Assembly (NCBI GenBank): GCA_046570105.1
Contig: JBKHVI010000001.1
Coordinates: 32,001 to 96,000 of the forward strand
Length of the DNA: 64,000 bases
Origin: Bacteriovoracia bacterium
Lineage (GTDB): Bacteria; Bdellovibrionota; Bacteriovoracia; Bacteriovoracales; Bacteriovoracaceae
Reading direction: 5' to 3'
In this document: positions 529 to 14,423 of the stretch, in pieces
Numbering within the stretch: the stretch's first letter is position 1
Layout: every line of letters starts with the position of its first letter
Program-made: the position numbers and the translations under genes
Notes under the pieces: model-generated
Databases searched by the model: none
What the model saw: the letters and a program-made list of their open reading frames with translations, nothing else
Told to the model about the DNA's origin: nothing

Positions 529-693
529 GAATTCAAAACTCTAGGGTAAGTCTGAAGCTAATCCAGGTTTAGAAAGACGATATCACTTGAAGACGCCTTA
601 AGCTTTCTAGTTAGAGTCATTGATTCAAACTGGCATAAGCTCTATATTTTAAATGGTTTCTGCGCCAGTTTGAGACCCTAGAGTTTTGAATTC
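529..693. repeat. Structured intergenic element, copy A (candidate ncRNA or MITE-like element)
   Basis: Perfect 19-bp terminal inverted repeat (529-547/675-693), internal hairpin 625-673, homology to 14252-14423, flanking direct repeat GTCAGTGAAC. Confidence 0.75.
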
Positions 694-756
694 GTCAGTG
701 AACCTTATAGCTTTTAAGCAAAAGGGCATGTTACAACTATTGCCCTAGGAGATTTT

Positions 757-1164
757 ATGATTACGACCTTGATTGTTTTGCATGTCATCATCTGCGTTCT
801 TCTCGTGGTGACCGTTCTTCTTCAATTCGGCAAAGGCGCTGAAATGGGTGCAGTTATGGGTGGCGGTGCCTCTCAAGCTGTTTTCTCTAGCTCAAGCAAA
901 GGCAACTTTTTCACCAAGCTGACTTCAGTTTTGGCGATCGGTTTCATGTTGAATTCAATCGCGCTCACAACGTTGAAGAGCCGCGAAGCTAAAAAATCTC
1001 TCTTTGATGATGAAGCAGAAATTGCTCAACCACTTAATAGTGATGCTGCTCAAGCTGATGCTGCTGCCAAAGCGGCGGCTCCAACTGCTACAGCTCCAGC
1101 TGAAGCAACTGCTCCTCAAGCAGCTGCTCCTGCCACAGCTCCAACAGAAGCTCCTAAGCAGTAA
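757..1164 (+). CDS. secG: Preprotein translocase subunit SecG
   Basis: Two TM helices, VLLQxGKG motif, Ala/Pro-rich tail, tpiA-secG synteny. Confidence 0.95.
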   Translation: MITTLIVLHVIICVLLVVTVLLQFGKGAEMGAVMGGGASQAVFSSSSKGNFFTKLTSVLAIGFMLNSIALTTLKSREAKKSLFDDEAEIAQPLNSDAAQADAAAKAAAPTATAPAEATAPQAAAPATAPTEAPKQ

Positions 1165-1200
1165 CTAAGAGATTAGTCACAATCCAGTACTAGTAGTTCT

Positions 1201-1225
1201 ATGGGGGCTTCAAGCCCCCATTTTT
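1201..1225 (+). terminator. Intrinsic terminator of secG
   Basis: ATGGGGGCT-TCA-AGCCCCCAT stem followed by a T run. Confidence 0.8.
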
Positions 1226-1313
1226 ATTAGTGACTGTACTTATTTAGCAAAATCTATAATTAACTCCCCCCCCCCTCTGGTTTATTAGTGTTAAACATTA
1301 GTAAACTAGCCTA

Positions 1314-2429
1314 ATGAAAACATTCAACTCAGGAAGTTATAAGCAGCAATTTAAATACAAGAGCTTTTCACCTTCCTTTCTTCCAAAAAATCTTATTATT
1401 GAAGATCCAGCGCTCAACTTACTTGTTGCTGAAGCAAGCAGACATCTAGGTGAGCTCAACGCTTTATCGCAGATGGTTCCTAACGTTGACTTGTTTATCC
1501 ATATGCACGTGATGAAAGAAGCGACTCAATCAAGCCGCATTGAGGGTACACAAACAGGATTTGACGAGGCCCTCATGGAGGAAGAGCAAATCCTTCCCGA
1601 AAAAAGAGATGATTGGCGCGAAATTCAAAATTACACCCTGGCAATGAATCATGCTATTGCACGCTTAAACGAACTACCTCTGAGCATGAGATTAGTTAAG
1701 GAAACTCACAAGACACTGATGACAGCAGCAAGAGGTGAAAGCAAGCTTCCAGGTGAAGTCAGATCAAGTCAAAACTGGATTGGTGGCTCCTCGCTCACTG
1801 ATGCATTTTTTATTCCACCTCACAAAGATGAACTATCGAATCTATTGAGCAATTTGGAAGATTTTTGGCATGATGAAAATATTGTACTAGCACCACTCAT
1901 CAAAGCAGCGCTTTCGCACTATCAATTTGAAACGATTCACCCTTTTTTAGATGGTAACGGTAGAATTGGACGCTTGTTAATTACTCTATACCTCTTAGAT
2001 AAAAAAATACTCAAATACCCAGTTCTCTATCTGTCAGATTTTTTTGAGAGAAACAAAGGCTCATATTACGATAGCCTTACTGTTGTTCGATCAAGCCACG
2101 ATATCGGACAATGGCTGCGTTTTTTCATGACAGGCGTTATCGAAACTTCACAAAAGGGAAAGACAACCTTCGAAAAAATACTCTCACTAAAAGCCAAAAC
2201 GGATCAGGAAGGAACGCGACTGGGGAAAAAATCACCTGAACTCTTCCAGTACCTTTATCGTCACCCTGTCACAAATGTAAATTCAGTTGCTTCAAATCTT
2301 AATATGAGTATCCCTGGCGCCAATAATCTGATTGAACGTTTTACAAACGAAAAATATCTTGTGGAATGGACAGGCCATAAACGAAATAGAAGTTTTACAT
2401 TTGAACCTTACTTAAAGATTTTTGTGTGA
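1314..2429 (+). CDS. Fic family AMPylase (class II, N-terminal inhibitory motif, C-terminal HTH)
   Basis: HPFLDGNGRIGR catalytic motif; SSRIEG inhibitory motif. Confidence 0.92.
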   Translation: MKTFNSGSYKQQFKYKSFSPSFLPKNLIIEDPALNLLVAEASRHLGELNALSQMVPNVDLFIHMHVMKEATQSSRIEGTQTGFDEALMEEEQILPEKRDDWREIQNYTLAMNHAIARLNELPLSMRLVKETHKTLMTAARGESKLPGEVRSSQNWIGGSSLTDAFFIPPHKDELSNLLSNLEDFWHDENIVLAPLIKAALSHYQFETIHPFLDGNGRIGRLLITLYLLDKKILKYPVLYLSDFFERNKGSYYDSLTVVRSSHDIGQWLRFFMTGVIETSQKGKTTFEKILSLKAKTDQEGTRLGKKSPELFQYLYRHPVTNVNSVASNLNMSIPGANNLIERFTNEKYLVEWTGHKRNRSFTFEPYLKIFV

Positions 2430-3175
2430 ACGAAGAAATCTTTGTCGTCCTCCTCTCACTCATCGCTGGCTTCATCGATTCAATCGCCGGTGGCGGTGGG
2501 CTGATCACCATTCCGATGTGGACGCTTGTTTTGGGGCCAGGTGCGCATGTGGTGGCCACCAATAAAGTCGGCGCATTTGTTTCATGTGTCGTTGCTTTGT
2601 GGGTGTATCAGCGGCACCACAAGATTCAGTGGAAAACGGGCATGTGGTTTTTGATCGCCATCTCTGTTGGATCCCTTTGTGGAGCTCAACTCACGGGTCT
2701 AGTATCACCGCTGTTTTTTGCTTGGCTCTTACTCTTGTTGTGCCCATTCATTCTGGTGATTGTCTGGAAAAAAGAGCGTCTCTTTGCCGAGCGACCTGAT
2801 CGACCAGTCTCGCGCAGAAAATTGCTCGCGGCCGGACTCGCGGTGGGAATTTATGACGGCTTCTTTGGACCAGGCGGCGGCACGTTTATGCTACTTGCGC
2901 TCCTGGGACTCACTCAAATGCCCCTGATGGCGGCACTGGCACTCTCCAAACTCTCCAACTCTTTGTCGGCCGGGATATCGCTCGCCAGCTTCACTTGGCA
3001 AGGTTTGGTGGATTGGCGATGGGGAGTTATTGGTGGAGCTTCGATTGTTCTTGGTTCTTTTTTAGGTGCGAGACTCACGACAAGAAAATCATCCCATGTG
3101 GTGAAGCCTGCACTAACGATTGTGGTAATTCTCTTGATGACAAAAATTGTCGTTGATCTGATTAGATCAAATTGA
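2426..3175 (+). CDS. TSUP (TauE/SafE) family transporter
   Basis: GFIDSIAGGGGLI and YDGFFGPGGG motifs; multiple TM segments. Confidence 0.9.
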   Translation: MNEEIFVVLLSLIAGFIDSIAGGGGLITIPMWTLVLGPGAHVVATNKVGAFVSCVVALWVYQRHHKIQWKTGMWFLIAISVGSLCGAQLTGLVSPLFFAWLLLLLCPFILVIVWKKERLFAERPDRPVSRRKLLAAGLAVGIYDGFFGPGGGTFMLLALLGLTQMPLMAALALSKLSNSLSAGISLASFTWQGLVDWRWGVIGGASIVLGSFLGARLTTRKSSHVVKPALTIVVILLMTKIVVDLIRSN

Positions 3176-3773
3176 TTCCCATGACACAGCCGACTTTCTC
3201 TTTATTGATCTGGTCTTCATCGTGCAAATCGCGCGCGGTAAATCCGACTGTAATATGAGGGGCCCAACGCTGCCATTTGAAATCATCCCCTGAGCCACCG
3301 CGTGCGACATAAAGGCGCCAAGCTTCTTGGCGAAAATCTTTCATCGCTGGTGAATCAATGGCAACAAACCAACTGTCTTCACTGCGACCCTTAATTGTGG
3401 CAGTCACTTTTTTGAGACATTTCACTTTGAACTTACTCTTCATCAAGCGCTCTTTGAGCACTAGCTTTTCTACATCTTCCATTTTGAGAACTTGCGACAA
3501 GATACTCCACTCAGGTGGAGTGAGGATGGTGATATGAGCTTCACCACGATGTTGCAGTTTTGCATTAATGGATTTTTCTAAGTTCTGACGAAGCTGATCA
3601 ATCGGTGCAAATGGAAGTGGGACGGCCACCCAATCAGGATGAGAAAGAAAATAAGGTCTCTTTTCAACAGATTCGATTTCTTTTGAAAGAGGAATAGACT
3701 GGATGACTGATTCGGCGTGGGCGACAGAAAGCAGAATAAAAAGTAGGAGGAAACTAAGACTTCTTTTTTTCAT
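3162..3773 (-). CDS. Secreted 2H phosphoesterase family protein
   Basis: Signal peptide (...SVAHA); two HxT motifs (HITI, HITV). Confidence 0.7.
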   Translation of the reverse strand: MKKRSLSFLLLFILLSVAHAESVIQSIPLSKEIESVEKRPYFLSHPDWVAVPLPFAPIDQLRQNLEKSINAKLQHRGEAHITILTPPEWSILSQVLKMEDVEKLVLKERLMKSKFKVKCLKKVTATIKGRSEDSWFVAIDSPAMKDFRQEAWRLYVARGGSGDDFKWQRWAPHITVGFTARDLHDEDQINKEKVGCVMGINLI

Positions 3774-4908
3774 TTTTTTTATTATCCCCGATCACTCGAA
3801 TTTTACCAAAGTCGGCATTCTGTAATGCTTTCACTTCTTCCAAAGGGAGCTGTGCCCATGGAATGGTCGGATCAAAACGATCTGAGAGTTTTAAGTCGCG
3901 TTTAACATCCGCTTTAACGTAGTCGACATGCTTCTCAAAAATATCAAATAACTTTGGCTCAAGCTTCACACCTCTGAACTTTCTCATAACATTCAAGGCA
4001 TCGGCCACATGGAGCACTTGGTTGTAAGAGCGTTTGGTGGTGATGGCATCAAAGAAATCGGCAATGGTACAGGCCCGGGCCATGGGATGAATATCTTCGC
4101 CAGGGATTTGGCGCGGATAACCTTTCCCGTCCCAGTTTTCATGGTGTTCATGCACAATACGAGCGATGACATTTACATCTAATGATGGATGAACTTTTAC
4201 ATGACCAGACAGGAGAAGTTCCAGACCATAACCTGGATGCAATTTGATGGTTTCATACTCGGCGTCCGACAATCCACCAGGACTGTTGAGAATATGCGTG
4301 GGAATTTTTACTTTACCGAGATCGTGCAACAAACCACCGAGACCAATATTCACTAGATCTTGCCGTGAAGCTTTGGGATGGGCCGCACGCCAAATGCTGA
4401 TGCAATACATGGAAACGTTAATCGAGTGATCGTAAGTGTAAAAATCATGAAAGCTTAAATTACCAATCAAACCTTTGAGATCATCAATACCGTACTCTCC
4501 TAAAAGATCGACCATATTTTCGACGACTTCGCGACAGCCTTCAATATTGGCTTCTAAAAGTTCAGTAGAGAACTCACGATTGCCATCGAAGATTTTTCCC
4601 AAATATTCGAGTGCTGAATCTTTTAAGACTGAGGCTTTCTCAGAATCTTCATACTGATCAGAATGCACCAAACTCTTCATATAGAGATTACGCTGATCTT
4701 CTGGAATATAGAGTTGCAGATATTTTCGTCTGAGATTTTCTAGATCCTCTGTCGAAAGCGCTTCTCCCGCAGGAAAAATGCGCACGAATTTTTCCTTCTC
4801 TTTTAGAGAAGAAGAATTGACGAATAAATCAAAGGGGAGCTTGAGGCCTGTCGTAATGAGGTCATAACGAACAGAGAAAAAACTCCGGTAAACACCCGCT
4901 GTGAGCAT
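3754..4908 (-). CDS. HD-GYP cyclic dinucleotide phosphodiesterase
   Basis: TYDHS, LLHDLGK, HHENWDGKGYP and ADFFDA motifs. Confidence 0.92.
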   Translation of the reverse strand: MLTAGVYRSFFSVRYDLITTGLKLPFDLFVNSSSLKEKEKFVRIFPAGEALSTEDLENLRRKYLQLYIPEDQRNLYMKSLVHSDQYEDSEKASVLKDSALEYLGKIFDGNREFSTELLEANIEGCREVVENMVDLLGEYGIDDLKGLIGNLSFHDFYTYDHSINVSMYCISIWRAAHPKASRQDLVNIGLGGLLHDLGKVKIPTHILNSPGGLSDAEYETIKLHPGYGLELLLSGHVKVHPSLDVNVIARIVHEHHENWDGKGYPRQIPGEDIHPMARACTIADFFDAITTKRSYNQVLHVADALNVMRKFRGVKLEPKLFDIFEKHVDYVKADVKRDLKLSDRFDPTIPWAQLPLEEVKALQNADFGKIRVIGDNKKNEKKKS

Positions 4909-4962
4909 TCAAAGATTGTAGCATGGGCCTCAAATTCTATGTATTTGGCAGTGCTTATAGGC

Positions 4963-4989
4963 AAAAAAAGGGCCCACCTAAGTGGGCCC
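4963..4989 (-). terminator. Intrinsic terminator of ssb
   Basis: GGGCCCAC/GTGGGCCC stem with T7 on the minus strand. Confidence 0.8.
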
Positions 4990-5020
4990 ATTGGCAACTT
5001 AATGAGTCAGAGATCAAGGC

Positions 5021-5482
5021 CTAAAATGGGATGTCATCAGAAGCGAAATTAGCTTCAGTTGAAACCTTAAAGTCTTGATTCATTTCAACCGGTGCTGCAC
5101 CTTGGTTGAAGCCAGCGCCATTATCAACATTGCGTTCTGCACCGCGATCAGCAGAAGGGCCGCCAATGAATTGAACTGTGGATGCGTTGATTTCAGTCAT
5201 GTAACGCTTGTTACCGTCTTTGTCGTCCCATGAACGAGTTTGCAGACGGCCTTCAACGAAAGCTTGGCGACCTTTTGAGAGGTACTGGTTACAAAGCTCA
5301 GCGAGCTTGCCCCAGACAACCACACGGTGCCACTCTGTTTTTTCTTGTTTCTGTCCGCCCTTGTCAGTCCACGCTTCAGTGGTAGCAAGAGAGAAATTAC
5401 AAACCGGCGCGCCGCCTGGTGTGTACTTCAACTCTGGGTCTTGACCCAAACGTCCTAGCAAGATGACTTTGTTAACGCTCAT
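5021..5482 (-). CDS. ssb: Single-stranded DNA-binding protein
   Basis: [24 protein letters not shown]-terminal DDIPF. Confidence 0.98.
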
Positions 5483-5600
5483 AGAATCTCCTTCGCCTGA
5501 TGGTTAGGCATAAATGGTTTAAGTGATATCCATCACGAACACCTGTTGTATCGCGAACGATTCAGTCAGGAAATAGTAAGGAATCTCACAAGGGCCTACT

Positions 5601-5617
5601 TGCGTACAGCGTGCCAA
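5601..5617 (-). promoter_or_regulatory. Putative sigma54 (-24/-12) promoter upstream of ssb
   Basis: Minus strand TTGGCACGCTGTACGCA = GG-N10-GC. Confidence 0.5.
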
Positions 5618-5683
5618 TAGAGAGATGAGCGAAGTACTTGAAACACTTCATGTGAAAAAAAACAAAATGAAAATTATTGGACG

Positions 5684-6064
5684 TCAGTTGGAAATTTCTG
5701 GACTCTTTTGAGGCTTTCTTGCGCGAAGCACCGCCGATTCGGGATGCTCGCGAAGATGGTCTTCTACATGACGACGAGCGATGCGCACATCGCGCTTATA
5801 CCAAGTGGGATCAAAGCCACAGACTGTGCACTTGAGTTCGCGTCGATAAAGTAATTTGCGTGAGAATTCGTAGCTGGCCCAAATGAAAAAGAAGCTGCCC
5901 AAAGTTTTCCATTCTAAAAAATCAAACATCAGCCAAGTCAGAACAACTGTTAGCAAGGCCATTTGCAAGTAATGGAGTGGTGAAAGATGACGCTGATAAC
6001 TCATGCTACGCGGGCTGCGACATAAGGCACAGTAACAATCTCTTTTAGCAGCTTTTTGAAACAT
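5684..6064 (-). CDS. Small membrane protein with two CxxC motifs
   Basis: CALC...2 TM helices...CTVC; SD-like GAGG upstream. Confidence 0.7.
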   Translation of the reverse strand: MFQKAAKRDCYCALCRSPRSMSYQRHLSPLHYLQMALLTVVLTWLMFDFLEWKTLGSFFFIWASYEFSRKLLYRRELKCTVCGFDPTWYKRDVRIARRHVEDHLREHPESAVLRARKPQKSPEISN

Positions 6065-6295
6065 TCTTCACCTCACAGAGTATTAAACCACGTCTCGGGG
6101 CAAGACTGAGACTGGGCAGAAATGGCCGCCGAGTCTCCTGCGAGACTCGGGGTAAAGAAGTTGTTGGTGGCGGGGTACTAACAGGTGGGATGCAGAGGGG
6201 GGACAGCCTAGCCAGCTTACGTTCCACATCCAGACCCAAGGCTTCCGTGCCTGGATGCTTTACACACTCCAAATCCCGTACCAAAATACTCGTAA

Positions 6296-8992
6296 ATGAT
6301 ATCAAGAACTTCCCCCAGCCTAGTGACAAAATGCGCCAGTGAGCGGGGCCAAATCAGCATCTTTTTTGCCTCCAGCTTGATCGTTTTGATTTCGATCATC
6401 GCTTTCGTCATCAATATTGGATTGTTCGTTAAGGCGAAGATCAACTTGCAAAATGCGACTGATGCCTCCGCCTATGCCGGTGCAGCTGTTCAAGCCCGTA
6501 TGCTCACTCGCATCGGTTACATGAATTGGGAAATGCGCAACGTCTACAAAGAGTGGATGTTCAAATACTACGTGCTGGGAAATCTCAACATCGACGAAGT
6601 CGAGAATCCTGATATCGCTGGGGATAACATCAGTTTTGCCATGCGACCGGATCCCAACCTCAGTGCCGCTCAAGGTGGAACTGATATTTATAATTTTCCC
6701 TCTGTGTGTCTACACTATGCGGGCGTTCCCACTAACGTCTGTCGTCGCTACGCTGTTCCCGGTATCCCGCGCTTTGAACCCACTAACCTCGTCGGTATTG
6801 ATGAGACCACTTCTTCATTTATTGATGCCATTGTAAAAGAAAAATCGAGTGACTGCTCCAAGCGCACGCAACTGAATTACAACGTCACAAATATGTGGGC
6901 CTACAACTTGAATGATGGCACCACTTCCAGTTCAACTGCTTTTGCAGATGCGCCACAGATTGCTGCTGATCGAGTGGGAGCGTGGCCCAAGGCCGTTGAA
7001 CTTGCCATTCGCACGCGCTCACTTGAATTTGCGATGAATCGTGCTCCTATTTCAGAGGGAGTTTGTAACCCCAACACAGGCCAAGGCTCGCCGGGCTGTC
7101 GAAGTGTAAAAGATTTTGAATCGCAACAACACTACGGTAATGAACGAATCATTAAGGCCTATTATTCAGGCATGAGAAATTTGGGAAGTGATCGCGACAA
7201 TGAAATGCGCGCGAGCTACACCATGTTTGAACTTCCTCCTACTCAAGTTGAAATACCTTCTGAAAATTCTCTCAGTGCACTTTTGATGAGTCCCGATGCA
7301 CGTAATGCGGGTAAATGGTTTGTTGATTTACAACTCCACCTCGTCAACTACGCAACTTTTTTCACCGCGCTCATTGCTCGTGACGATAGTCTTTCTGTCT
7401 CTGGGCAGACGGTGGTAGCAGAAGGTGCTTGTGACGTTTCCAAAATCGCCATTCCGGTTCCTGGTTATCCGTTAGGTTTTATAAAAAATCCAGATGTCCT
7501 CACCTACTACGCAGTTCGTGGAGAAGCAAAATTTCAAGGGCTCTTTAATCCCTTCTCTGGCCCCGTAAAACTGACTGCATGGGCCGCCGCTAAACCCATG
7601 GGTGGAAGAATTGGCCCCGCATTGTTTCGTCAGAGTACAGAAAACACTATTGCTTCACGAACGACGGCTAACAAGAAACGCTCGACTGCTTACTTGAGTG
7701 GCCTCAACCTCACAGATGTACCCAGAAAGGGTGGCGGTGGTAATGTTCCGCTAGGTCAATATGCTCCTGGTATGCCCATTCCAATTAATATGTCGGCAAA
7801 CCCCGAGGGACGCTTCTGGATCAGCGACGCTGGAGACGATGTCGGCGGATGGATTGCGGGACCTAGTATTGTCTTTGGAATTCCTAACTTGGTTTATGAT
7901 TTTGATTTAGATGCAACCGAATCAGGCGAAGTGACTTATCAATCAGGCAGCCAGGACACCAATGTTATCACTCCGGCAGCAGTAGGAAGCGAAGACAACT
8001 ATTCCAAAGGACTTTTTAAAACCAGTCAGTTCAAAAAATTTAAAGAGAATCTAGTTGGAACAGATGATCCGCTAGCGATTGCCACTTCGATCAGCAAAGT
8101 GCGTGCCCCGACTCGTTACGAGGCGGCTAATTATACGGTTCCTGTGCCATCGGAACTCAGCGTGAACGAAGATATTGATGGTGGCACGATGGATACTTTT
8201 GGTTTTGTGACTGGCCCCAACGAAGATGATCGGCGATTTGCGCAAATTTATGCGCCTCTTTATGGGGCGCAAGAAGATGCCATGTATAAAAATGCACCCG
8301 ACGTCGTAAACGCTATTCACACTTTCATGCAGCAACAATCGCAGGCCATGACAAAATACCGCAATTCGATGAATCAAGTGGCGAAAAGAATTTTTCTAGA
8401 TAACCCCGATAAATATCGAGATGCGGCTGAACGAATTTCAAATTTTGATTTTAACCAAGATGCGAACTCAAGCAATCCACTTAACTGCAGAAGTATTACG
8501 GGATCGTTCTTGTGGTTTTATTTTAATGGTGAGGGCAGTCTCGCTGTCAGTAATGCCGATGGACTTTGCCCGACGAGTTTCAAAACTAGTATTGAAACTT
8601 ATTTCACGACCCTAAGCGATAGGTTCAATCCCACTTCACACATTATTGAATATTCGTACAAAGAGGATATGCCTGGCTTAGCTAATTTTTCGCAACTTTT
8701 AACGGGCTATATGCCTGGGCCATTACGTGGTGCAGACCAGAGAGGAATATTTAATACTCCGTTTGGAGGGGCCACTAACTCCGAAACAATGAGACGCACA
8801 GGATACTCCACCAAGCTCGTAACAGTGAAATCGCTGACTGGTTCAGGCAACTATGGTCTAGGGGCCGCTGTAGGATTTGCCATGTACTCTGAGGGTAATC
8901 CCACAACGCTCCAGGAAGACGTAAAACAGAATGCTTTACGCAATGCTTTGGACCTGACCCTAAGCGGCGTCCCTGCAACTATCAATCACTGA
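6296..8992 (+). CDS. Tad (TadG-like N-terminal) domain protein, large Flp pilus-associated protein
   Basis: ERGQ + hydrophobic helix + KINLQNATDASAYAGA typical of the Tad domain; start codon uncertain. Confidence 0.75.
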   Translation: MISRTSPSLVTKCASERGQISIFFASSLIVLISIIAFVINIGLFVKAKINLQNATDASAYAGAAVQARMLTRIGYMNWEMRNVYKEWMFKYYVLGNLNIDEVENPDIAGDNISFAMRPDPNLSAAQGGTDIYNFPSVCLHYAGVPTNVCRRYAVPGIPRFEPTNLVGIDETTSSFIDAIVKEKSSDCSKRTQLNYNVTNMWAYNLNDGTTSSSTAFADAPQIAADRVGAWPKAVELAIRTRSLEFAMNRAPISEGVCNPNTGQGSPGCRSVKDFESQQHYGNERIIKAYYSGMRNLGSDRDNEMRASYTMFELPPTQVEIPSENSLSALLMSPDARNAGKWFVDLQLHLVNYATFFTALIARDDSLSVSGQTVVAEGACDVSKIAIPVPGYPLGFIKNPDVLTYYAVRGEAKFQGLFNPFSGPVKLTAWAAAKPMGGRIGPALFRQSTENTIASRTTANKKRSTAYLSGLNLTDVPRKGGGGNVPLGQYAPGMPIPINMSANPEGRFWISDAGDDVGGWIAGPSIVFGIPNLVYDFDLDATESGEVTYQSGSQDTNVITPAAVGSEDNYSKGLFKTSQFKKFKENLVGTDDPLAIATSISKVRAPTRYEAANYTVPVPSELSVNEDIDGGTMDTFGFVTGPNEDDRRFAQIYAPLYGAQEDAMYKNAPDVVNAIHTFMQQQSQAMTKYRNSMNQVAKRIFLDNPDKYRDAAERISNFDFNQDANSSNPLNCRSITGSFLWFYFNGEGSLAVSNADGLCPTSFKTSIETYFTTLSDRFNPTSHIIEYSYKEDMPGLANFSQLLTGYMPGPLRGADQRGIFNTPFGGATNSETMRRTGYSTKLVTVKSLTGSGNYGLGAAVGFAMYSEGNPTTLQEDVKQNALRNALDLTLSGVPATINH

Positions 8993-9063
8993 TGCTTGCC
9001 CAACAAATTCGCGGCTTTTATACTAGATAAAGTTTTTCCTCCCCCTTCAGCAAAGGATCATTT

Positions 9064-9642
9064 GTGGCCGCTAAAAAAGTAAAAAAAGCTCCTGCAAAAA
9101 AAGCAGCTAAAAAACCAGCTAAGAAAGTCGCTGCTAAGAAACCAGCGAAAAAAGTCGCCGCTAAAAAGCCGGCGAAAAAAGTCGCCGCTAAGAAGCCAGC
9201 GAAAAAAGTAGCTGCCAAGAAGCCAGCGAAAAAAGTAGCTGCCAAGAAGCCAGCGAACAAAGCTGCTGCTCCTGCTAAGAAAGCGGCACCAAAAGCTGCT
9301 GCTAAAGAAAGCAAGAAAGCCAAGGTCGTCGTTCTTCCTGCTGTTGTTCCTGCAACACCTGCTCATGCAAAAACGGCTGCCTTTGACGAAGACTACAATT
9401 CTGATGGCGCTGATGAATTTGACGCTGACTTTGATGATGAAGAAGAAGAAACTCCTGCCAAGCCAGCTGCTGACGAGCCAGCTGAAGAAGAGGAAGAAGA
9501 GGGATCTTATGGTTACGGTTGGGGCTATGAGGAAGGCCTTGATAACCCAGAGGAAGCCGAGGAAGAAGACGAAATCTTTGATGAAGATGAAGAGTACGTT
9601 AAGGGCCCCAAAAAGCCTGAGACAGAGGAAGAAGACGATTAG
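9064..9642 (+). CDS. Histone H1-like Lys/Ala/Pro-repeat protein with acidic C-terminal half
   Basis: Five PAKKVAAKK repeats followed by an Asp/Glu-rich tail; GTG start with AAGGA; terminator downstream. Confidence 0.8.
   Translation: MAAKKVKKAPAKKAAKKPAKKVAAKKPAKKVAAKKPAKKVAAKKPAKKVAAKKPAKKVAAKKPANKAAAPAKKAAPKAAAKESKKAKVVVLPAVVPATPAHAKTAAFDEDYNSDGADEFDADFDDEEEETPAKPAADEPAEEEEEEGSYGYGWGYEEGLDNPEEAEEEDEIFDEDEEYVKGPKKPETEEEDD
9115..9249 (+). repeat. 27-bp coding tandem repeat x5 (PAKKVAAKK)
   Basis: Units of the form CCRGCKAARAAAGTMGCYGCYAARAAR seen directly. Confidence 0.9.
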
Positions 9643-9663
9643 TCAGTTCAACATGGAATACTC

Positions 9664-9694
9664 AGAAGTGGCCCAAACGGGCCACTTCTTTTTT
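9664..9694 (+). terminator. Intrinsic terminator
   Basis: AGAAGTGGCCC-AAAC-GGGCCACTTCT followed by a T run. Confidence 0.8.
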
Positions 9695-9702
9695 AAGGCG
9701 AT

Positions 9703-9954
9703 ATGAAAAAACTAGCTCTCTATTATTTTGATGAATGCCCTTACTGCCAGATCGTCATTCGTGCCTTGAGCGAGACTAAGCTCACTGAACATGTCACAAT
9801 GAATAATATAAGAAAGGTCGCAGCTCATCGAGAAAAGCTCATGAATGATACGGGAAGATCAACCGTGCCATGCCTCTATATCGATGACAAACCAATGTTT
9901 GAGAGTCGTGATATTGCCCGCTGGCTTCATGATTATGCCAAAACGTTGAAGTAA
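9703..9954 (+). CDS. Glutaredoxin family protein
   Basis: CPYC active site, TVPCL, FESRDI. Confidence 0.9.
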   Translation: MKKLALYYFDECPYCQIVIRALSETKLTEHVTMNNIRKVAAHREKLMNDTGRSTVPCLYIDDKPMFESRDIARWLHDYAKTLK

Positions 9955-9964
9955 GGAGTCAGTA

Positions 9965-11260
9965 GTGGAAATTCGAGATCCCGTCCATGGCTCAATCGCA
10001 ATCCACGATGCAGAGATTCCCATTATCGATCATCCGCTCTTTCAGCGATTGAGAAATATTAAACAACTGGGTTTTTCTGAATTTGTTTTTCCTGGTGCCA
10101 CTCACACTCGCTACTTACATTCAATTGGCGTAATGAATGTGGGCACGCTCGTTTTTAATGCTCTCTTCAAAGACAACCTCTACGACAAAGAAGTTTTGCG
10201 TCTACGTCAAACACTTCGACTTGGCTGTCTTCTCCATGACATTGGTCATGCTCCCCTCTCTCACGCCACCGAGAGTGTCATGCCAATGGTGGCTGAACTG
10301 AAACTTCCTAAACGGTTTGATGCGGGTAAAGCTCGCCAGGCTTCTCACGAAGACTACACTCTCAAAAGTATTGTGGACTCGAGTTTTACGAGTTCTTTCA
10401 AAGCCGTTCGCGCTGAATTCGGTGTCACTCCAGAAGCCGTTGCCGAATTAGTCTTAGGCGAAACCAGCGATCCTGCTTATTTTAAAATCGGCGGCGTTGA
10501 TTATTTCCCACTACTCCACCAACTTGTCTCATCAGAGATGGACTGTGATCGCATGGATTATCTCTTGCGTGACAGCTATTTTTGCGGCGTGAGCTACGGG
10601 AAATTTGATCTCGACTGGATTATTGATAATCTTAAATCATGTGAAGAAAATGGCAGATCTTACTTAGGAATTAGTGAACGAGCCGTCTCAACGTTCGATG
10701 ATTTTCTCTTAAGCCGCTTTCATATGTTTATGATGGTGTATTTCCACTATCGTGCCGTCTGCCTCGAACAAATGCTTATGCGTTACTTCAAAGCCTCAGG
10801 CACTTCTGAATATGCTATTCCTGCCGACATTGAAGCGTATCTCGATCACGATGACCCACATCTTTGGAAAATTCTACGGAAGAGCCAAGATCCTTGGGCG
10901 AAACGAGTCGTCAGAAATCACATCCCTCGCAAAGTGATGGAAACATTTGGGCCAGACGGTGAAGACCGCATGGCTCAACTTGAGACATTCCTAAAAACAG
11001 CCAACATTGATTACATTAAGTGTTCCTCCAAGGGCAGACTTTCAAAATATTACGCCGACTCAGCCCCACCGAATACTTATCCAATGAAAGTTTTGCGTGA
11101 AGCTCCTCTGGCCGGCGACAAACGTCACATCAATGTAAATCAAGCGACAGATCTCTTTGAGAAATACTCTAAGAGCCACGCAGTCACTCGTCTCCATCTC
11201 GATTACGATGAACTCTCTGCAAATGAGCAGAAGGCCATCCTCGATATTGTGAGGGCCTAG
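9965..11260 (+). CDS. HD-domain phosphohydrolase (SAMHD1-like dNTPase family)
   Basis: IRDPVHG, QRLRNIKQLG, HTRYLHS, LLHDIGH and DCDRMDYL motifs. Confidence 0.9.
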   Translation: MEIRDPVHGSIAIHDAEIPIIDHPLFQRLRNIKQLGFSEFVFPGATHTRYLHSIGVMNVGTLVFNALFKDNLYDKEVLRLRQTLRLGCLLHDIGHAPLSHATESVMPMVAELKLPKRFDAGKARQASHEDYTLKSIVDSSFTSSFKAVRAEFGVTPEAVAELVLGETSDPAYFKIGGVDYFPLLHQLVSSEMDCDRMDYLLRDSYFCGVSYGKFDLDWIIDNLKSCEENGRSYLGISERAVSTFDDFLLSRFHMFMMVYFHYRAVCLEQMLMRYFKASGTSEYAIPADIEAYLDHDDPHLWKILRKSQDPWAKRVVRNHIPRKVMETFGPDGEDRMAQLETFLKTANIDYIKCSSKGRLSKYYADSAPPNTYPMKVLREAPLAGDKRHINVNQATDLFEKYSKSHAVTRLHLDYDELSANEQKAILDIVRA

Positions 11261-11261
11261 C

Positions 11262-11921
11262 GTGCAAAAGATATTCCTCTATTTCACTCTAGTCATTTTC
11301 TACTTGGGGTTGTCGAAAACACTTTCGCCGACTGAGTTAGGAATGGACTATGTACCCAATGAGAGAGGATTATCGAAAATCATTCCAGGTCAAAACGTCA
11401 CAGTTATCTTAACTGACACTCATGCCACCGGCTTTGTGATTAAAACTTATTATCAAAAATATCGTTTGGTTTATGGCTTTCAAGGCGTAGAAGAAATGAT
11501 CGTACGCACGTCACGGGATTTCGCTTTGAAAAACCGCCAAAACATCGGCATGTCACTCTTTAGGCGACAAGATGGCGCAGAAGAAAGCCTACCCATGCCA
11601 CCAGGTGTAACCTATGTCGGGCATAGAGGATTTGGGGAATGGCGAGCTGACAAAAAAGGTGTGATGCGCTGGAGATTTTATCGCGCTTACAAAAACCTCC
11701 CTCGCTATTTAGGCTGGGGACGTTGGCGTCCTGATGTGACCTTCCAAGAGGACTACATCAGTTTCCGTGAAAGGAAAAAACCATTCTATGGGCGCGAACA
11801 AGAGTTTGGCTCGGATGGAAAAATCACAAAAAAGAATTTTCCCAATTTTTTCAAACCTGAACGTCAAAAGAAAGTTGATCTCAAAAGCTTGTTAGTTCGC
11901 TACTTAAAAGAGAACTTCTAA
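11262..11921 (+). CDS. Hypothetical exported/membrane-anchored protein
   Basis: N-terminal hydrophobic segment; PPGxxYVG...GEW motif; operonic spacing. Confidence 0.65.
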   Translation: MQKIFLYFTLVIFYLGLSKTLSPTELGMDYVPNERGLSKIIPGQNVTVILTDTHATGFVIKTYYQKYRLVYGFQGVEEMIVRTSRDFALKNRQNIGMSLFRRQDGAEESLPMPPGVTYVGHRGFGEWRADKKGVMRWRFYRAYKNLPRYLGWGRWRPDVTFQEDYISFRERKKPFYGREQEFGSDGKITKKNFPNFFKPERQKKVDLKSLLVRYLKENF

Positions 11922-11938
11922 GAGAGAAAGGCAGTTAT

Positions 11939-12841
11939 ATGAATGAAATTTTTGATCGACTCCTCATTCGCATCATTTTGGTGGCCATCGTTTGTGCCAT
12001 GCTCTTTATCTATAAATATGCCCATGTACTGTTTTATCCTAGTATGAAGCAGCAAATGACCAAACGATTCTATCCGGCACAAAATCCCGCCGACACCCTC
12101 CACATGTTTTCGCGTCTCATTGGTTTCGCTGTCATTTTAAGCTCTCTCGGTTTCGATGAAAGCCATGGCCTTTTTCTTAGTATTTTCCATTTCCTCGTTT
12201 GGGGCACTCTCACTTGTGGGCTTTATCTCATCTCACTCTTCATTATCGAAAGCATCGTGCTTTATAACTTCGAATACAAAGATGAGATCCTCAAACGCCA
12301 GAACTTAAGCTACGCGACAGTTTGTTTTTCCCATGCCCTTGCCGTGGCCTATGTGACACGAGCCGTAGTCGATCAATCAGAAAACTCTTTGGTTATTCTT
12401 TTTGTACTCTGGCTACTCTCGATGGTTTTTTTGGGCTTCGGTTCACGCTACTACTCTCTTTTAACAAAATTGAATTTTGACCGTTTGATCACTCAACAGA
12501 AGCCGACGATTGCCCTATCTTATATGGGTTTTACCATCGGCCTTGGATGGTTGGTGGGAGAGAGCTTCACCCAAGAACACTACGACATCACCATGTACTG
12601 CGTTCAGGTATTGCTCAAAATGCTCTTGGCGCTGATTATCTACCCACTTTTTAAACGCGGACTTGAGTATGTCTTCAAAACCCGCATCTATGCCGCTGGG
12701 CCCGACTCTGCTCCTCAGGACGTCGATGTCCAGAACTGGGGCTATGGATTTTACGAGTGTGCCCTCTTTATCGCGTCAGCAATCCTGACTTCGATGATCG
12801 TGAATCATATCCAATTCGGCACGATTTACCCCTTCTTCTAA
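11939..12841 (+). CDS. Polytopic membrane protein (DUF350-like)
   Basis: About 8 TM helices with DEILKRQNLS motif reminiscent of DUF350. Confidence 0.6.
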   Translation: MNEIFDRLLIRIILVAIVCAMLFIYKYAHVLFYPSMKQQMTKRFYPAQNPADTLHMFSRLIGFAVILSSLGFDESHGLFLSIFHFLVWGTLTCGLYLISLFIIESIVLYNFEYKDEILKRQNLSYATVCFSHALAVAYVTRAVVDQSENSLVILFVLWLLSMVFLGFGSRYYSLLTKLNFDRLITQQKPTIALSYMGFTIGLGWLVGESFTQEHYDITMYCVQVLLKMLLALIIYPLFKRGLEYVFKTRIYAAGPDSAPQDVDVQNWGYGFYECALFIASAILTSMIVNHIQFGTIYPFF

Positions 12842-12891
12842 GCCACTCTCCAGAAGAGGTAAAATAGAGCTTGGGACAGGAGGTCCCGAGC

Positions 12892-13428
12892 ATGGGAATT
12901 CGCGAAAAAATTCAAAGCAACGTTTTTCATCTCATCAATCTTTTGACTGGTCGCCTCGCTGCGGTTGAGCGTCGTGTGATGAGATTGCAAGAAGAAGTTG
13001 ATCGCCAACTCGCCATTCAACGTAGTCAGATGGTGCGAATCAAAAATCGCGAAGAAATCAGCGATGACTTTATTTTACGTGGAAAAAGCTACAACGATCT
13101 TTCTCCCGAAAAAGCCTGGAAGTTATTCCAACAAAAAGATTTTGATTTTGTTTTCTTGGATGTCTCTCACAGCGATTTTGAACCTGAAGGTCAGCGCCCA
13201 GGTGTGACGATCCATATTCCATTAGAAGAACTCGAGCGTCGCTGGGATGAAATTCCTAATCACTCCACCCCTGTTTTTATTATTTCCGAAGAAGGCCTGC
13301 GCTCAGTTTTGGCCTGCGACTATCTGGCCACCAAGGGCTACTTCAATTGCAATAATGTGTCTGGGGGATGGAAATTCTGGCCAGGGCATCGCTTAGTAGA
13401 TGTCTCTAAGCGAGAAGCGAGCGCTTAA
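12892..13428 (+). CDS. Rhodanese-like domain protein with N-terminal coiled coil
   Basis: LDV...HIPLEEL...GLRS...NVSGGW; ATG at 12892 preceded by AGGAGG. Confidence 0.8.
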   Translation: MGIREKIQSNVFHLINLLTGRLAAVERRVMRLQEEVDRQLAIQRSQMVRIKNREEISDDFILRGKSYNDLSPEKAWKLFQQKDFDFVFLDVSHSDFEPEGQRPGVTIHIPLEELERRWDEIPNHSTPVFIISEEGLRSVLACDYLATKGYFNCNNVSGGWKFWPGHRLVDVSKREASA

Positions 13429-13473
13429 CTTCAAGCCTTAGGCTCAACTGATGAATTTGAGATTTTCAAGCGC

Positions 13474-13929
13474 TTAGATCAGCGTGCCTTTCTTCTGACT
13501 GCTGATTAATTCTTTGTGCAAGTTCTCAAGCATCAACTCCACACGATCAAGCTCAACCTCACCTAGTTTGCGTGAGTAATGAAGCTCGATATCGTTAATA
13601 ACCTGCAATAGATTGATTTTGAATTTCTCGCCATAATCAGTGAGTTTCACCAACTGCTCGCGCTTATCCACATCTGAGTTATGACGTTTAACGTAGCCGC
13701 GTCTTTCGAGCTCGTTGAGATGGCTCGTCATGGTCTGCTTTTTGAGACCGCAGGCCTTGCCAATTAATTTAATCGAGGGTGAGTCGTGTTCGCTAAGGAA
13801 CATGAGGATCTCTAAAAACGATGCTCTCAAATCGGTGAAACCTCTACCTTGGAGTTCATGAATGAGCTCTACGCTGTAGAGGCGATAGATCTGTTTAACT
13901 AAACTTCCGATGTGGGCTATTCGTCGCAT
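13474..13929 (-). CDS. MarR family transcriptional regulator
   Basis: wHTH with LERRGYV...DKR...LTDYG. Confidence 0.9.
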   Translation of the reverse strand: MRRIAHIGSLVKQIYRLYSVELIHELQGRGFTDLRASFLEILMFLSEHDSPSIKLIGKACGLKKQTMTSHLNELERRGYVKRHNSDVDKREQLVKLTDYGEKFKINLLQVINDIELHYSRKLGEVELDRVELMLENLHKELISSQKKGTLI

Positions 13930-13963
13930 ATAGTATGAAGATAATACTATGCGACCCTATTGA

Positions 13964-14176
13964 TTACAACTGTAACTTAGTAAGAACTCGGCTGATCTCT
14001 TCAGGCAATGGCTTCTGCCCTTGGGCCTTACTTACTTCACCGCTAGATGCTTGAAATTCCTCAACTCCCTCAACCCAAAGATCCCATTTCACGCGCTCTT
14101 TAAGACTCACAGGAGCTTCAGCTAAAGCCGCAGATGAAAGTGTTAGGGCCAAAAGAATGAAAGCAAATAAGCGCAT
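13964..14176 (-). CDS. Small secreted hypothetical protein
   Basis: ATG at 14176 after GAGGAG; signal peptide MRLFAFILLALTLSSAALA. Confidence 0.65.
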   Translation of the reverse strand: MRLFAFILLALTLSSAALAEAPVSLKERVKWDLWVEGVEEFQASSGEVSKAQGQKPLPEEISRVLTKLQL

Positions 14177-14251
14177 GTAAGTCTCCTCGTAGACCAAGGA
14201 TAAGGGATAACCCCACGTGCGTGGGGTTCCTGTGTAAAACTTATCAGGGGC

Positions 14252-14423
14252 TTTTAGATATATAACTCACAAGTAAAGTCCGAAGCTTAAATCAATTTAA
14301 AATCAAAGATTGATTGAGGACGCCTCAAGCATTCTACTAGAATGTGCCGTTCATCCTGGAACAGAACTCCCATTACTAATGGGGCCCTGAACCAGGATGA
14401 GACTTGTGAGTTATATTCTAAAA
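14252..14423. repeat. Structured intergenic element, copy B (candidate ncRNA or MITE-like element)
   Basis: 22-bp terminal inverted repeat with one bulge (14252-14274/14402-14423), several internal hairpins, homology to 529-693. Confidence 0.75.

Follow-up and report, generated by a model that had tools for sequence, protein, structure and literature searches.

A Structured, Miniature-Transposon-Like Repeat Family in a Small Clade of Bacteriovoracaceae

Two copies of a structured repeat in a 64-kb window

The stretch of DNA analyzed here, hereafter the window, comprises 64,000 nucleotides (C1:32001-96000) of G000, a metagenome-assembled genome (MAG) of a Bacteriovoracia bacterium that is 88% complete and consists of 3.0 Mb in 131 contigs. 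It contains two copies, A and B, of a short non-coding repeat, both given here on the forward strand. Element A (positions 527 to 693) amounts to 167 nt of inserted DNA, namely GT followed by 529-693, and lies between the two copies of a 10-bp target-site duplication (GTCAGTGAAC) at 517-526 and 694-703, the left of which holds the stop codon of an upstream tpiA-like gene. Its terminal stem, P1, pairs 529-547 with 675-693 in 19 of 19 Watson-Crick pairs. Inside, helix P2 (550-594) pairs GTCT at 550-553 with AGAC at 591-594 around a variable hairpin, the core motif TTGAAGACGCCTTAAGCTTTCTA (587-609) is conserved by sequence comparison of the copies, and the long hairpin P4 (625-673) pairs TCAAACTGG at 625-633 with CCAGTTTGA at 665-673 and has a variable distal part. 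The covariance model R1, built from the 32 full-length copies of the repeat in G000, matches A at 532-692 with 135.7 bits.

Element B was matched by R1 at 14259-14419 with 137 bits, and its outer limits are not fixed, as its flanks show no clear duplication. Its P1 arms are 14260-14274 and 14402-14416, its P2 pairs GTCC at 14278-14281 with GGAC at 14318-14321, its core motif lies at 14314-14336, and its P4 pairs TCATCCTGG at 14351-14359 with CCAGGATGA at 14392-14400. A and B have in common the sequence AAGTCYGAAGC, the motif TTGARGACGCCTYAAGCWTTCTA (587-609 and 14314-14336), and a hairpin closed by TCA..TGG/CCA..TGA. Compared with shuffled controls, both fold far more stably than expected (z of -6.2 for A and -9.7 for B). 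Each motif and pairing that an earlier note on this DNA had named in A and B was present where that note had placed it. A hairpin resembling an intrinsic terminator (ACCCCACGTGCGTGGGGT) lies at 14196-14222 of the window, ~35 nt to the left of B; the same hairpin is present in a relative of G000, G007.

Copy number and distribution

A profile built from A and B alone retrieved 30 more copies from G000 at E values of 6e-4 or better, and after three search rounds the genome was found to hold 32 full-length copies and 4 fragments, the latter mostly 3' parts. The resemblance of A and B, which the earlier note had treated as two distant elements, is indeed far beyond chance, but they are two members of a dispersed family rather than an isolated pair. 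The copies are 160 to 170 bp in size, and all 32 differ from one another. R1 gave 34 matches in G000, of which the window contains A and B only. Among 10 genus relatives, G003, G006, and G007 had 5, 11, and 20 matches, respectively, and the other 7 had none; a single weak match was found in G012 (E of 8.7e-4). Four of 151 sampled genomes of the family had R1 matches; a second genus is represented by G136 (5 matches) and G161 (4 matches). An exact-pattern scan of one genome each from 185,579 species returned 50 loci, of which 16 were true copies, and these belonged to four records titled Bacteriovoracaceae or Bacteriovoracia MAGs. When metagenomes were scanned for element halves beside genes, the 10 loci obtained were 9 full copies and 1 low-scoring match (44.5 bits), with no new partner. 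A single-gene tree of the genus grouped G000 with G007 and left the rest unresolved as to whether the carriers form a clade. Since all of the genomes are MAGs (G136 is 100% and G161 96% complete), multi-copy genes may be missing from them.

Two further repeats were seen next to copies of the family. The most divergent copy of G000 is preceded, at C3:18309-18350, by four tandem TTTTGGAG units that lead into its left arm. A second, GC-rich repeat of ~60 nt (..CGCCTCCTGGCT.CGGCGGCATACC..) occurs at C44:18167-18230, C28:18862-18917, C62:8979-9042, C12:51071-51126, and C60:8773-8830; it adjoins two element copies, lies upstream of one of the Y1-like genes described below, and is present in tandem triplicate beside an element copy of G007 (L060).

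Strict pairing that is symmetric between the strands

RNAalifold resolved three helices in the 32 copies of G000. P1 has 14 modelled pairs; complementary ends of 13 to 21 bp are present in 32 of 32 copies, while the sequence of P1 is the least conserved part of the element. P2 consists of GTCC paired with GGAC around a variable hairpin and also occurs as GCCC/GGGC, GCTC/GAGC, GCCT/AGGC, and GTCT/AGAC. P4 has a 9-bp base and a variable distal part, and the unpaired motifs that join the helices are near-invariant. Because the loop lengths vary, no conserved open reading frame (ORF) is possible.

Covariation was counted in 60 distinct copies from several genomes over 27 pairs, or 1,620 pair cells. 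Standard pairs fill 97.0% of the cells, compared with 80.7% in shuffled alignments, none of which (0 of 500) scored as high. Twenty-one of the 27 pairs, including all 14 of P1, have changed on both sides, in a total of 253 cells, and when the partners are slid by 1 to 3 columns, pairing drops to 30 to 48%. The covariation is plain in a MAFFT alignment too. It extends to the second genus, where the P4 of G136 reads CCATGTCTT/AAGACATGG, with 6 of 9 pairs changed and all changes compensated. The pair counts thus bear out the earlier claim of a covarying, structure-conserved family.

The earlier note had also inferred that selection acts on single-stranded structure; as regards one RNA strand, the evidence points elsewhere. 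A functional RNA strand is expected to tolerate wobble pairs and to show strand asymmetry. Of the 1,620 cells, 1,562 are Watson-Crick, 9 are G:T, 12 are A:C (equivalent to G:U on the opposite strand), and 37 are other combinations. In the 32 copies, folding is equally good on either strand, with mean z-scores (from mononucleotide shuffles, n = 30 each) of -6.0 and -6.3 under RNA parameters and of -5.8 and -6.2 under DNA parameters. In tandem gene spacers the element has the orientation of its neighbors in 5 cases and the opposite one in 2, and with respect to GC skew the copies are divided 16 to 16. Since wobble pairs are almost absent, the strands are symmetric, and the orientation is not tied to the surroundings, the pairing must hold in the DNA or in the transcripts of both strands. 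We infer that a requirement for strict Watson-Crick pairing at that level, and not one functional RNA strand, lies behind the covariation. Strong covariation alone does not prove an RNA gene, and a wobble deficit together with strand symmetry provides simple tests that separate DNA-level from RNA-level constraint.

These results bear directly on the idea that the copies are expressed small RNA genes or self-cleaving ribozymes acting in trans, whose mobility would be incidental. The strong structural covariation and the invariant unpaired motifs are what such genes would display, but the near-absence of wobble pairs, the lack of strand preference, and the mixed orientation in tandem spacers are not, and copies abut stop codons in a way that leaves no room for a promoter. 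The earlier note could not match the pair to a known RNA family, and Rfam gave nothing consistent: there were no matches at the gathering score in the window, and in 15 copies searched at E values up to 1 no family recurred, 5 of the 7 matches falling in the flanking sequence of one copy. A weak match to salivarius-1 inside one copy reached 23.8 bits, compared with a gathering score of 50 (E of 0.41). Aragorn detected no tRNA or tmRNA genes in the 32 copies. In RNA runs X17 to X19, contigs on positions 200-1100 of the window do not cover element A, although these contigs are of low share and therefore silent on transcription. Nothing in the analysis supports a ribozyme or a trans-acting small RNA gene, and we consider this explanation very unlikely.

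Insertion as DNA with duplication of the target

Direct repeats of 10 to 15 bp abut the element in 5 of the 32 copies of G000 (A, C38a, C44a, C49, and C1c), while mismatched-flank controls reached the same direct-repeat score in 3 of 140 cases. Two further cases were found among the copies of relatives. Most of the duplicated sequences have YAG at their start and extend across the upstream gene's stop codon.

Empty sites tell the same story. At the tpiA-secG locus, into which A is inserted, both flanks were matched in G006, G010, G005, G009, G002, G003, and G008 and one flank in G001, and the element is absent from the site in all eight of these genus relatives. In the empty site of G006 (...CTGTGTCAGTGAAGCTTATAGC...), the decamer that is duplicated at A occurs once, and nothing of P1 is visible. 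In G007, the closest relative, the C44a site has a single TAGGGAATCTTA and no element. The C38a site of G007 has adjacent flanks with the duplicated sequence present once, one base differing, and at a distance of 9 nt there is a solo left arm that matches the arm of the element exactly.

A remains polymorphic in nature. In DNA run X2, from another study, one contig (497-723) crosses the filled site with 0 differences at a depth of 11.2, and a second joins 516 to 694 at a depth of 14, skipping 177 nt, with 10 letters that fit on either side; the decamer is single in this empty allele, as it is in G006. As X2 holds both the filled and the empty allele, the A insertion is polymorphic, and the inserted DNA consists of 167 nt plus the 10-bp duplication. 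The whole unit, P1 included, is inserted as DNA and duplicates 10 to 15 bp of its target. The non-autonomous mobile element that the earlier note had listed among its options is the one that the target-site duplications, the empty sites, and the filled/empty polymorphism support.

A more conventional form is found in G136, where at least 5 copies are almost identical and are enclosed by an outer inverted repeat of 24 bp that is itself conserved. This outer repeat occurs 14 times (0 occurrences of a reversed-pattern control), and 9-bp duplications are present in 2 of 3 testable copies. At these loci (L198-L201, L204, and L206-L209) the clover-like fold is embedded in a unit of ~236 bp, and two loci retain only the last ~50 nt of the right end. 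G136 looks like the scene of a recent burst of a classical-looking MITE (a miniature transposable element with inverted repeats) that carries the clover.

Candidate mobilizing enzymes

Among the gene families searched for, DDE_Tnp_1 and TnpB were not found in G000. RVT_1, the reverse transcriptase (RT) family, was not found in G000, G003, G006, G136, or G161, and G007 alone of the five other carriers has one. Two insertion sequences (ISs) were considered as parents and rejected. An rve-type IS with a 416-aa product (C21:32617-34193) has ends unlike those of the element and a different distribution, being present in G001 and not found in G006. Its copies lie at contig ends (C21:32617-34193, C30:31348-32035, and C113:1-533), and because assembly breaks fall there, more copies may exist than were assembled. 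An IS5-like unit of G007 (L064:1846-2742) has its own ~20-bp inverted repeats (TTAGGGCGTGTTGACGTTT) and a 250-aa DDE_Tnp_1 gene. This gene, the only one of its family in G007, is 225 nt from an element copy, and the unit lies 180 nt downstream of the copy, a proximity that is probably due to chance.

Retron RNAs have an a1/a2 terminal stem of free sequence that closes conserved hairpins, and the layout of A and B had led to their comparison with retron msr-msd RNA. The element could be such a template, or a SINE-like RNA copied by an RT acting in trans. In addition to the layout, the variable length of the duplications, the extra bases at the junctions, and the excess of 3' parts among the G000 fragments can be cited in its favor. 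However, RVT_1 was found only in G007 among the six carriers searched, the ~32 copies are dispersed with target-site duplications and none lies beside an RT gene, an excess of wobble pairs and strand asymmetry are both absent, fragments with the 5' arm only exist, and no Rfam retron or group II family matched. These points leave the retron reading unsupported, and reverse transcription is in our view a highly improbable origin, slightly more so than the expression of small RNAs discussed above.

A more serious contender is a family of nine paralogous genes whose 210-aa product combines an HUH motif with a Tyr of the catalytic type; they are the only multi-copy transposase-like genes revealed by self-comparison of G000. 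They are located at C33:17232-17864, C72:5643-6260, C4:84151-84762, C62:8277-8882, C62:13130-13722, C59:8169-8777, C14:21271-21885, C63:12843-13448, and C2:36490-37101 and are 61 to 93% identical. The protein matches Y1_Tnp weakly (E of 2e-4; 21.9 bits, below the cut-off of 23), as it does REP_Tyr_transpos (NF047646; E of 3.5e-4; 20.5 bits, compared with a cut-off of 80), and no match among PDB sequences was found. The repeated unit spans ~640 bp. It opens 35 to 95 nt ahead of the start codon, where a conserved leader (ACATATGCCCC..GGAGGCAT) is able to mask the ribosome-binding site, and it closes immediately ahead of the stop codon, leaving every copy with a C-terminal tail of its own; inverted repeats were not observed. 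Another Y1/RAYT gene, distinct from these, is present together with a tandem repeat at C1:125721-126960, where R1 has no match.

These genes invite the reading of the element as REPIN- or PATE-like, that is, as folded single-stranded DNA moved by an IS200-like Y1 (HUH) transposase encoded elsewhere, with P2 and P4 as the end hairpins. Strict Watson-Crick pairing that is symmetric between the strands would suit a DNA hairpin substrate. At the C33:17232-17864 paralogue and at its G007 orthologue, the stop codon marks the start of a 3' half-element (P4 and the right arm). Within the genus, element and protein occur together in 4 genomes, the protein occurs by itself in 1, and neither occurs in 6. 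REPIN hairpins, too, are described as having changes that compensate each other and footprints of partial excision (PMC3116915); the term for target duplication does not occur in that paper.

The distribution of the genes and the character of the insertions speak against this reading. Single-strand transposition by the Y1 enzymes of IS200/IS605 is not known to make a target duplication, while insertions of the element make duplications of 10 to 15 bp, and the even division of the copies with respect to GC skew shows no strand bias. G136, with its recent burst, and G161 carry the element, and no match to the protein or to Y1_Tnp was found in either. G008 carries 5 copies of the protein but lacks the element. 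Of the 20 Y1 loci examined, 2 showed the adjacency, and being orthologues of each other these amount to one evolutionary event. Furthermore, the element is not made of two inverted REPs. In view of the two carriers with no Y1 match, the duplications, and the absent strand bias, mobilization by Y1 is an unlikely, minority reading.

Genomic context and retention

Both neighboring genes were called for 28 copies, of which 21 lie in convergent, 0 in divergent, and 7 in tandem spacers. The copies are usually 0 to 20 nt from stop codons, and several are directly behind hairpins that resemble intrinsic terminators. The element thus prefers, or survives in, convergent 3' spacers. It is not indispensable there, because G000 manages with a convergent spacer of only 4 nt at a site where a relative carries the element.

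Retention was assessed in 7 copies with orthologous sites in G007, G006, or G003, with the conserved columns defined from the other 46 sequences. Conserved columns differ in 2 of 152 cases in the G007 orthologues, 2 of 76 in the G006 orthologues, and 8 of 37 in the G003 orthologue, compared with 54 of 220, 76 of 110, and 36 of 55, respectively, for variable columns. P1 pairs changed on both sides outnumber those changed on one side by 11 to 1 in G006 and by 7 to 0 in G003, the corresponding figures for G007 being 4 and 5, and in the G003 pair all 14 P1 pairs are Watson-Crick in both partners. The fold and the motifs hence persist at orthologous sites where neutral positions are saturated. As neutral decay at the rate of the loops would erase the motifs, many resident copies may be under constraint, or their arms may be matched by hairpin-templated repair. 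The survival of motifs and pairing next to saturated loops suggests that selection keeps resident copies at many loci.

Other orthologous sites preserve reduced forms. At the site of B, G007 has only a mini hairpin whose 12-bp arms keep the inner arm sequence and enclose a loop of 14 nt, and the reverse is also found, a full copy in G007 facing a mini hairpin in G000. Orthologous sites also contain solo arms and 3' fragments, and fragments with the 5' arm only exist too. Mini hairpins and solo arms, which have P1-type arms and no core, were noted at C29:~7995-8045, C9:43441-43510, and C6:22225-22260 of G000 and at L117:2260-2320 of G007, the last being the site of B. The junction of an arm with TCATTAATT was found twice, in C29 and to the right of the C6 copy. 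A genome-wide search for short P1-armed hairpins returned few, degenerate ones, which do not constitute a separate abundant family.

Taken by themselves, the preference for convergent spacers, the motifs and pairing kept at orthologous sites, the ability of both strands to fold, and the mutual divergence of all 32 copies in G000 could be explained by a cis-element of the host that now moves little or not at all. It would act in both directions as a 3'-end hairpin or terminator, or serve a nucleoid protein as a binding site, and in this it would be comparable to REP/BIME; it would have spread long ago and be kept by host selection only. This is difficult to reconcile with the polymorphism of A in one metagenome and its absence from eight of eight genus relatives with the locus, with the absence of C44a from the closest relative, with the recent burst in G136, and with the 4-nt convergent spacer that suffices in G000. 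As a complete account, the host cis-element is doubtful, even more so than mobilization by Y1. It overlaps with the host-related half of the interpretation given below rather than excluding it.

A probable structured miniature transposon

We regard A and B, with a probability of about 60%, as copies of a structured MITE, a non-coding mobile DNA of ~165 bp that belongs to a small Bacteriovoracaceae clade and is close to the bcr1 and REPIN elements. Each copy can fold, on either strand, into a clover in which P1 closes P2 with its variable hairpin and the long P4. Because the ends vary in sequence and remain paired, while the interior is conserved, the machinery most likely recognizes the folded or subterminal core rather than the terminal sequence. 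A transposase still unseen that acts in trans and makes a staggered cut in the target is a tentative proposal, to which we give a little less than an even chance. For the host, the most plausible role would be that of an orientation-independent 3'-end module between converging genes, either a hairpin or terminator or a protein-binding site.

It is tempting to go further and to suppose that the ends of the element are set by a base-paired stem of arbitrary sequence, that the enzyme reads the folded core and cuts at the end of the stem, and that many copies have been recruited by the host, with a factor bound to the invariant motifs. Cutting at the stem end would give variable termini and duplications of 10 to 15 bp. 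We rate this extended version as improbable, somewhere between the Y1 and the host cis-element readings. If true, it would amount to a structure-guided DNA transposition that is not described for bacteria.

Several points weigh against the structured MITE. No transposase with matching ends was found, although IS copies may be missing from the MAGs. The duplications are of unequal length (10, 10, 10, 12, 13, 13, and 15 bp), and 0 to 10 unpaired extra bases, e.g., TTATC or TTATCCC, sit between the stem and the duplication, which is odd for a classical terminal-inverted-repeat transposon and indicates that the exact termini are not conserved. Several orthologous sites are empty or have remnants. 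The figure of 97.0% standard pairs comes from an alignment fitted to the model, which leans to structure, and neither the copies of one genome nor those of related genomes are independent of each other. The retention figures are biased by ascertainment, as only copies that are still recognizable were compared, and the spacer counts depend on crude gene calls (the longest ORFs of at least 100 aa).

The family inverts the conservation usual for miniature transposons, its ends being free in sequence and always paired and its interior fixed. It offers a natural case of how short mobile DNA may be recognized by its shape and of how such DNA comes to be retained in the tiny 3' spacers of a predator's compact genome. 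Among the literature entries listed, none described a repeat of this sort from Bdellovibrio-like organisms, which does not prove its absence from print.

Comparison with known systems

The family is small, non-coding, and multi-copy and has terminal inverted repeats, target-site duplications, and empty sites, as MITEs do; ends shared with an autonomous parent IS were not found. PATEs derived from IS200/IS605 would be expected to make no target duplication and to be biased to one replication strand, whereas here duplications are present and the orientation is 16:16.

Classical MITEs such as QMITE2, Correia/NEMIS, and ERIC resemble the family in being small, AT-rich, and intergenic, with inverted repeats, somewhat variable direct repeats, and a core. 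For the QMITE2 of Coxiella, the direct repeats are given as 7 to 9 bp, the MITE layout as direct repeat, inverted repeat, and core, and the transcripts of small AT-rich intergenic MITEs as predicted to form stable stem-loops (PMC10969869). The terminal repeats of a classical MITE are conserved and match a parent IS, while those of the family are its least conserved part and a parent IS was not found; the exception is the lineage of G136, with its conserved 24-bp outer repeat.

The likeness to retron msr-msd RNA, for which the models of Rfam were searched, lies in the terminal stem of free sequence that closes conserved hairpins. It does not extend to an adjacent RT gene, to RVT_1 in G000, or to an Rfam match, and ~32 copies with target-site duplications set the family apart.

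REPINs are long-lived intergenic hairpin repeats that show compensatory changes and traces of partial excision and are accompanied by a Y1-type gene next to a repeat hairpin (PMC3116915). The REPIN/RAYT system is similar to the family in its long persistence, its compensatory hairpin changes, and, more tentatively, its association with Y1. In a REPIN, two REPs stand in inverted orientation around a variable spacer and the ends are conserved, whereas in the family the ends vary, an asymmetric interior is conserved, and inversion of the left half (P2) does not yield the right half (P4). Unlike in REPIN/RAYT, duplications are made, and the Y1 family is multi-copy (9), is weakly RAYT-like, and had no match in two carrier genomes.

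In architecture, bcr1 of the Bacillus cereus group is the nearest described analogue. It is a dispersed non-coding element of ~155 bp, not conserved between close strains and flanked by direct repeats, which folds into a cruciform-like structure of two independent stem-loops with compensatory changes and whose own transposase is not known (PMC3184786). Its direct repeats are a fixed 5 bp, it is reported as transcribed, and its structure is discussed at the RNA level (PMC3184786). The family is comparable to bcr1 in its size, direct repeats, compensated stem-loop fold, and lack of an own transposase, a likeness drawn on architecture alone, and differs from it in its 10- to 15-bp duplications, its lack of wobble pairs, and its phylum. 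From all of these systems the family is set apart by the lack of a parent element, by variable duplications of 10 to 15 bp, by a strict Watson-Crick symmetry, and by an inverted pattern of conservation.

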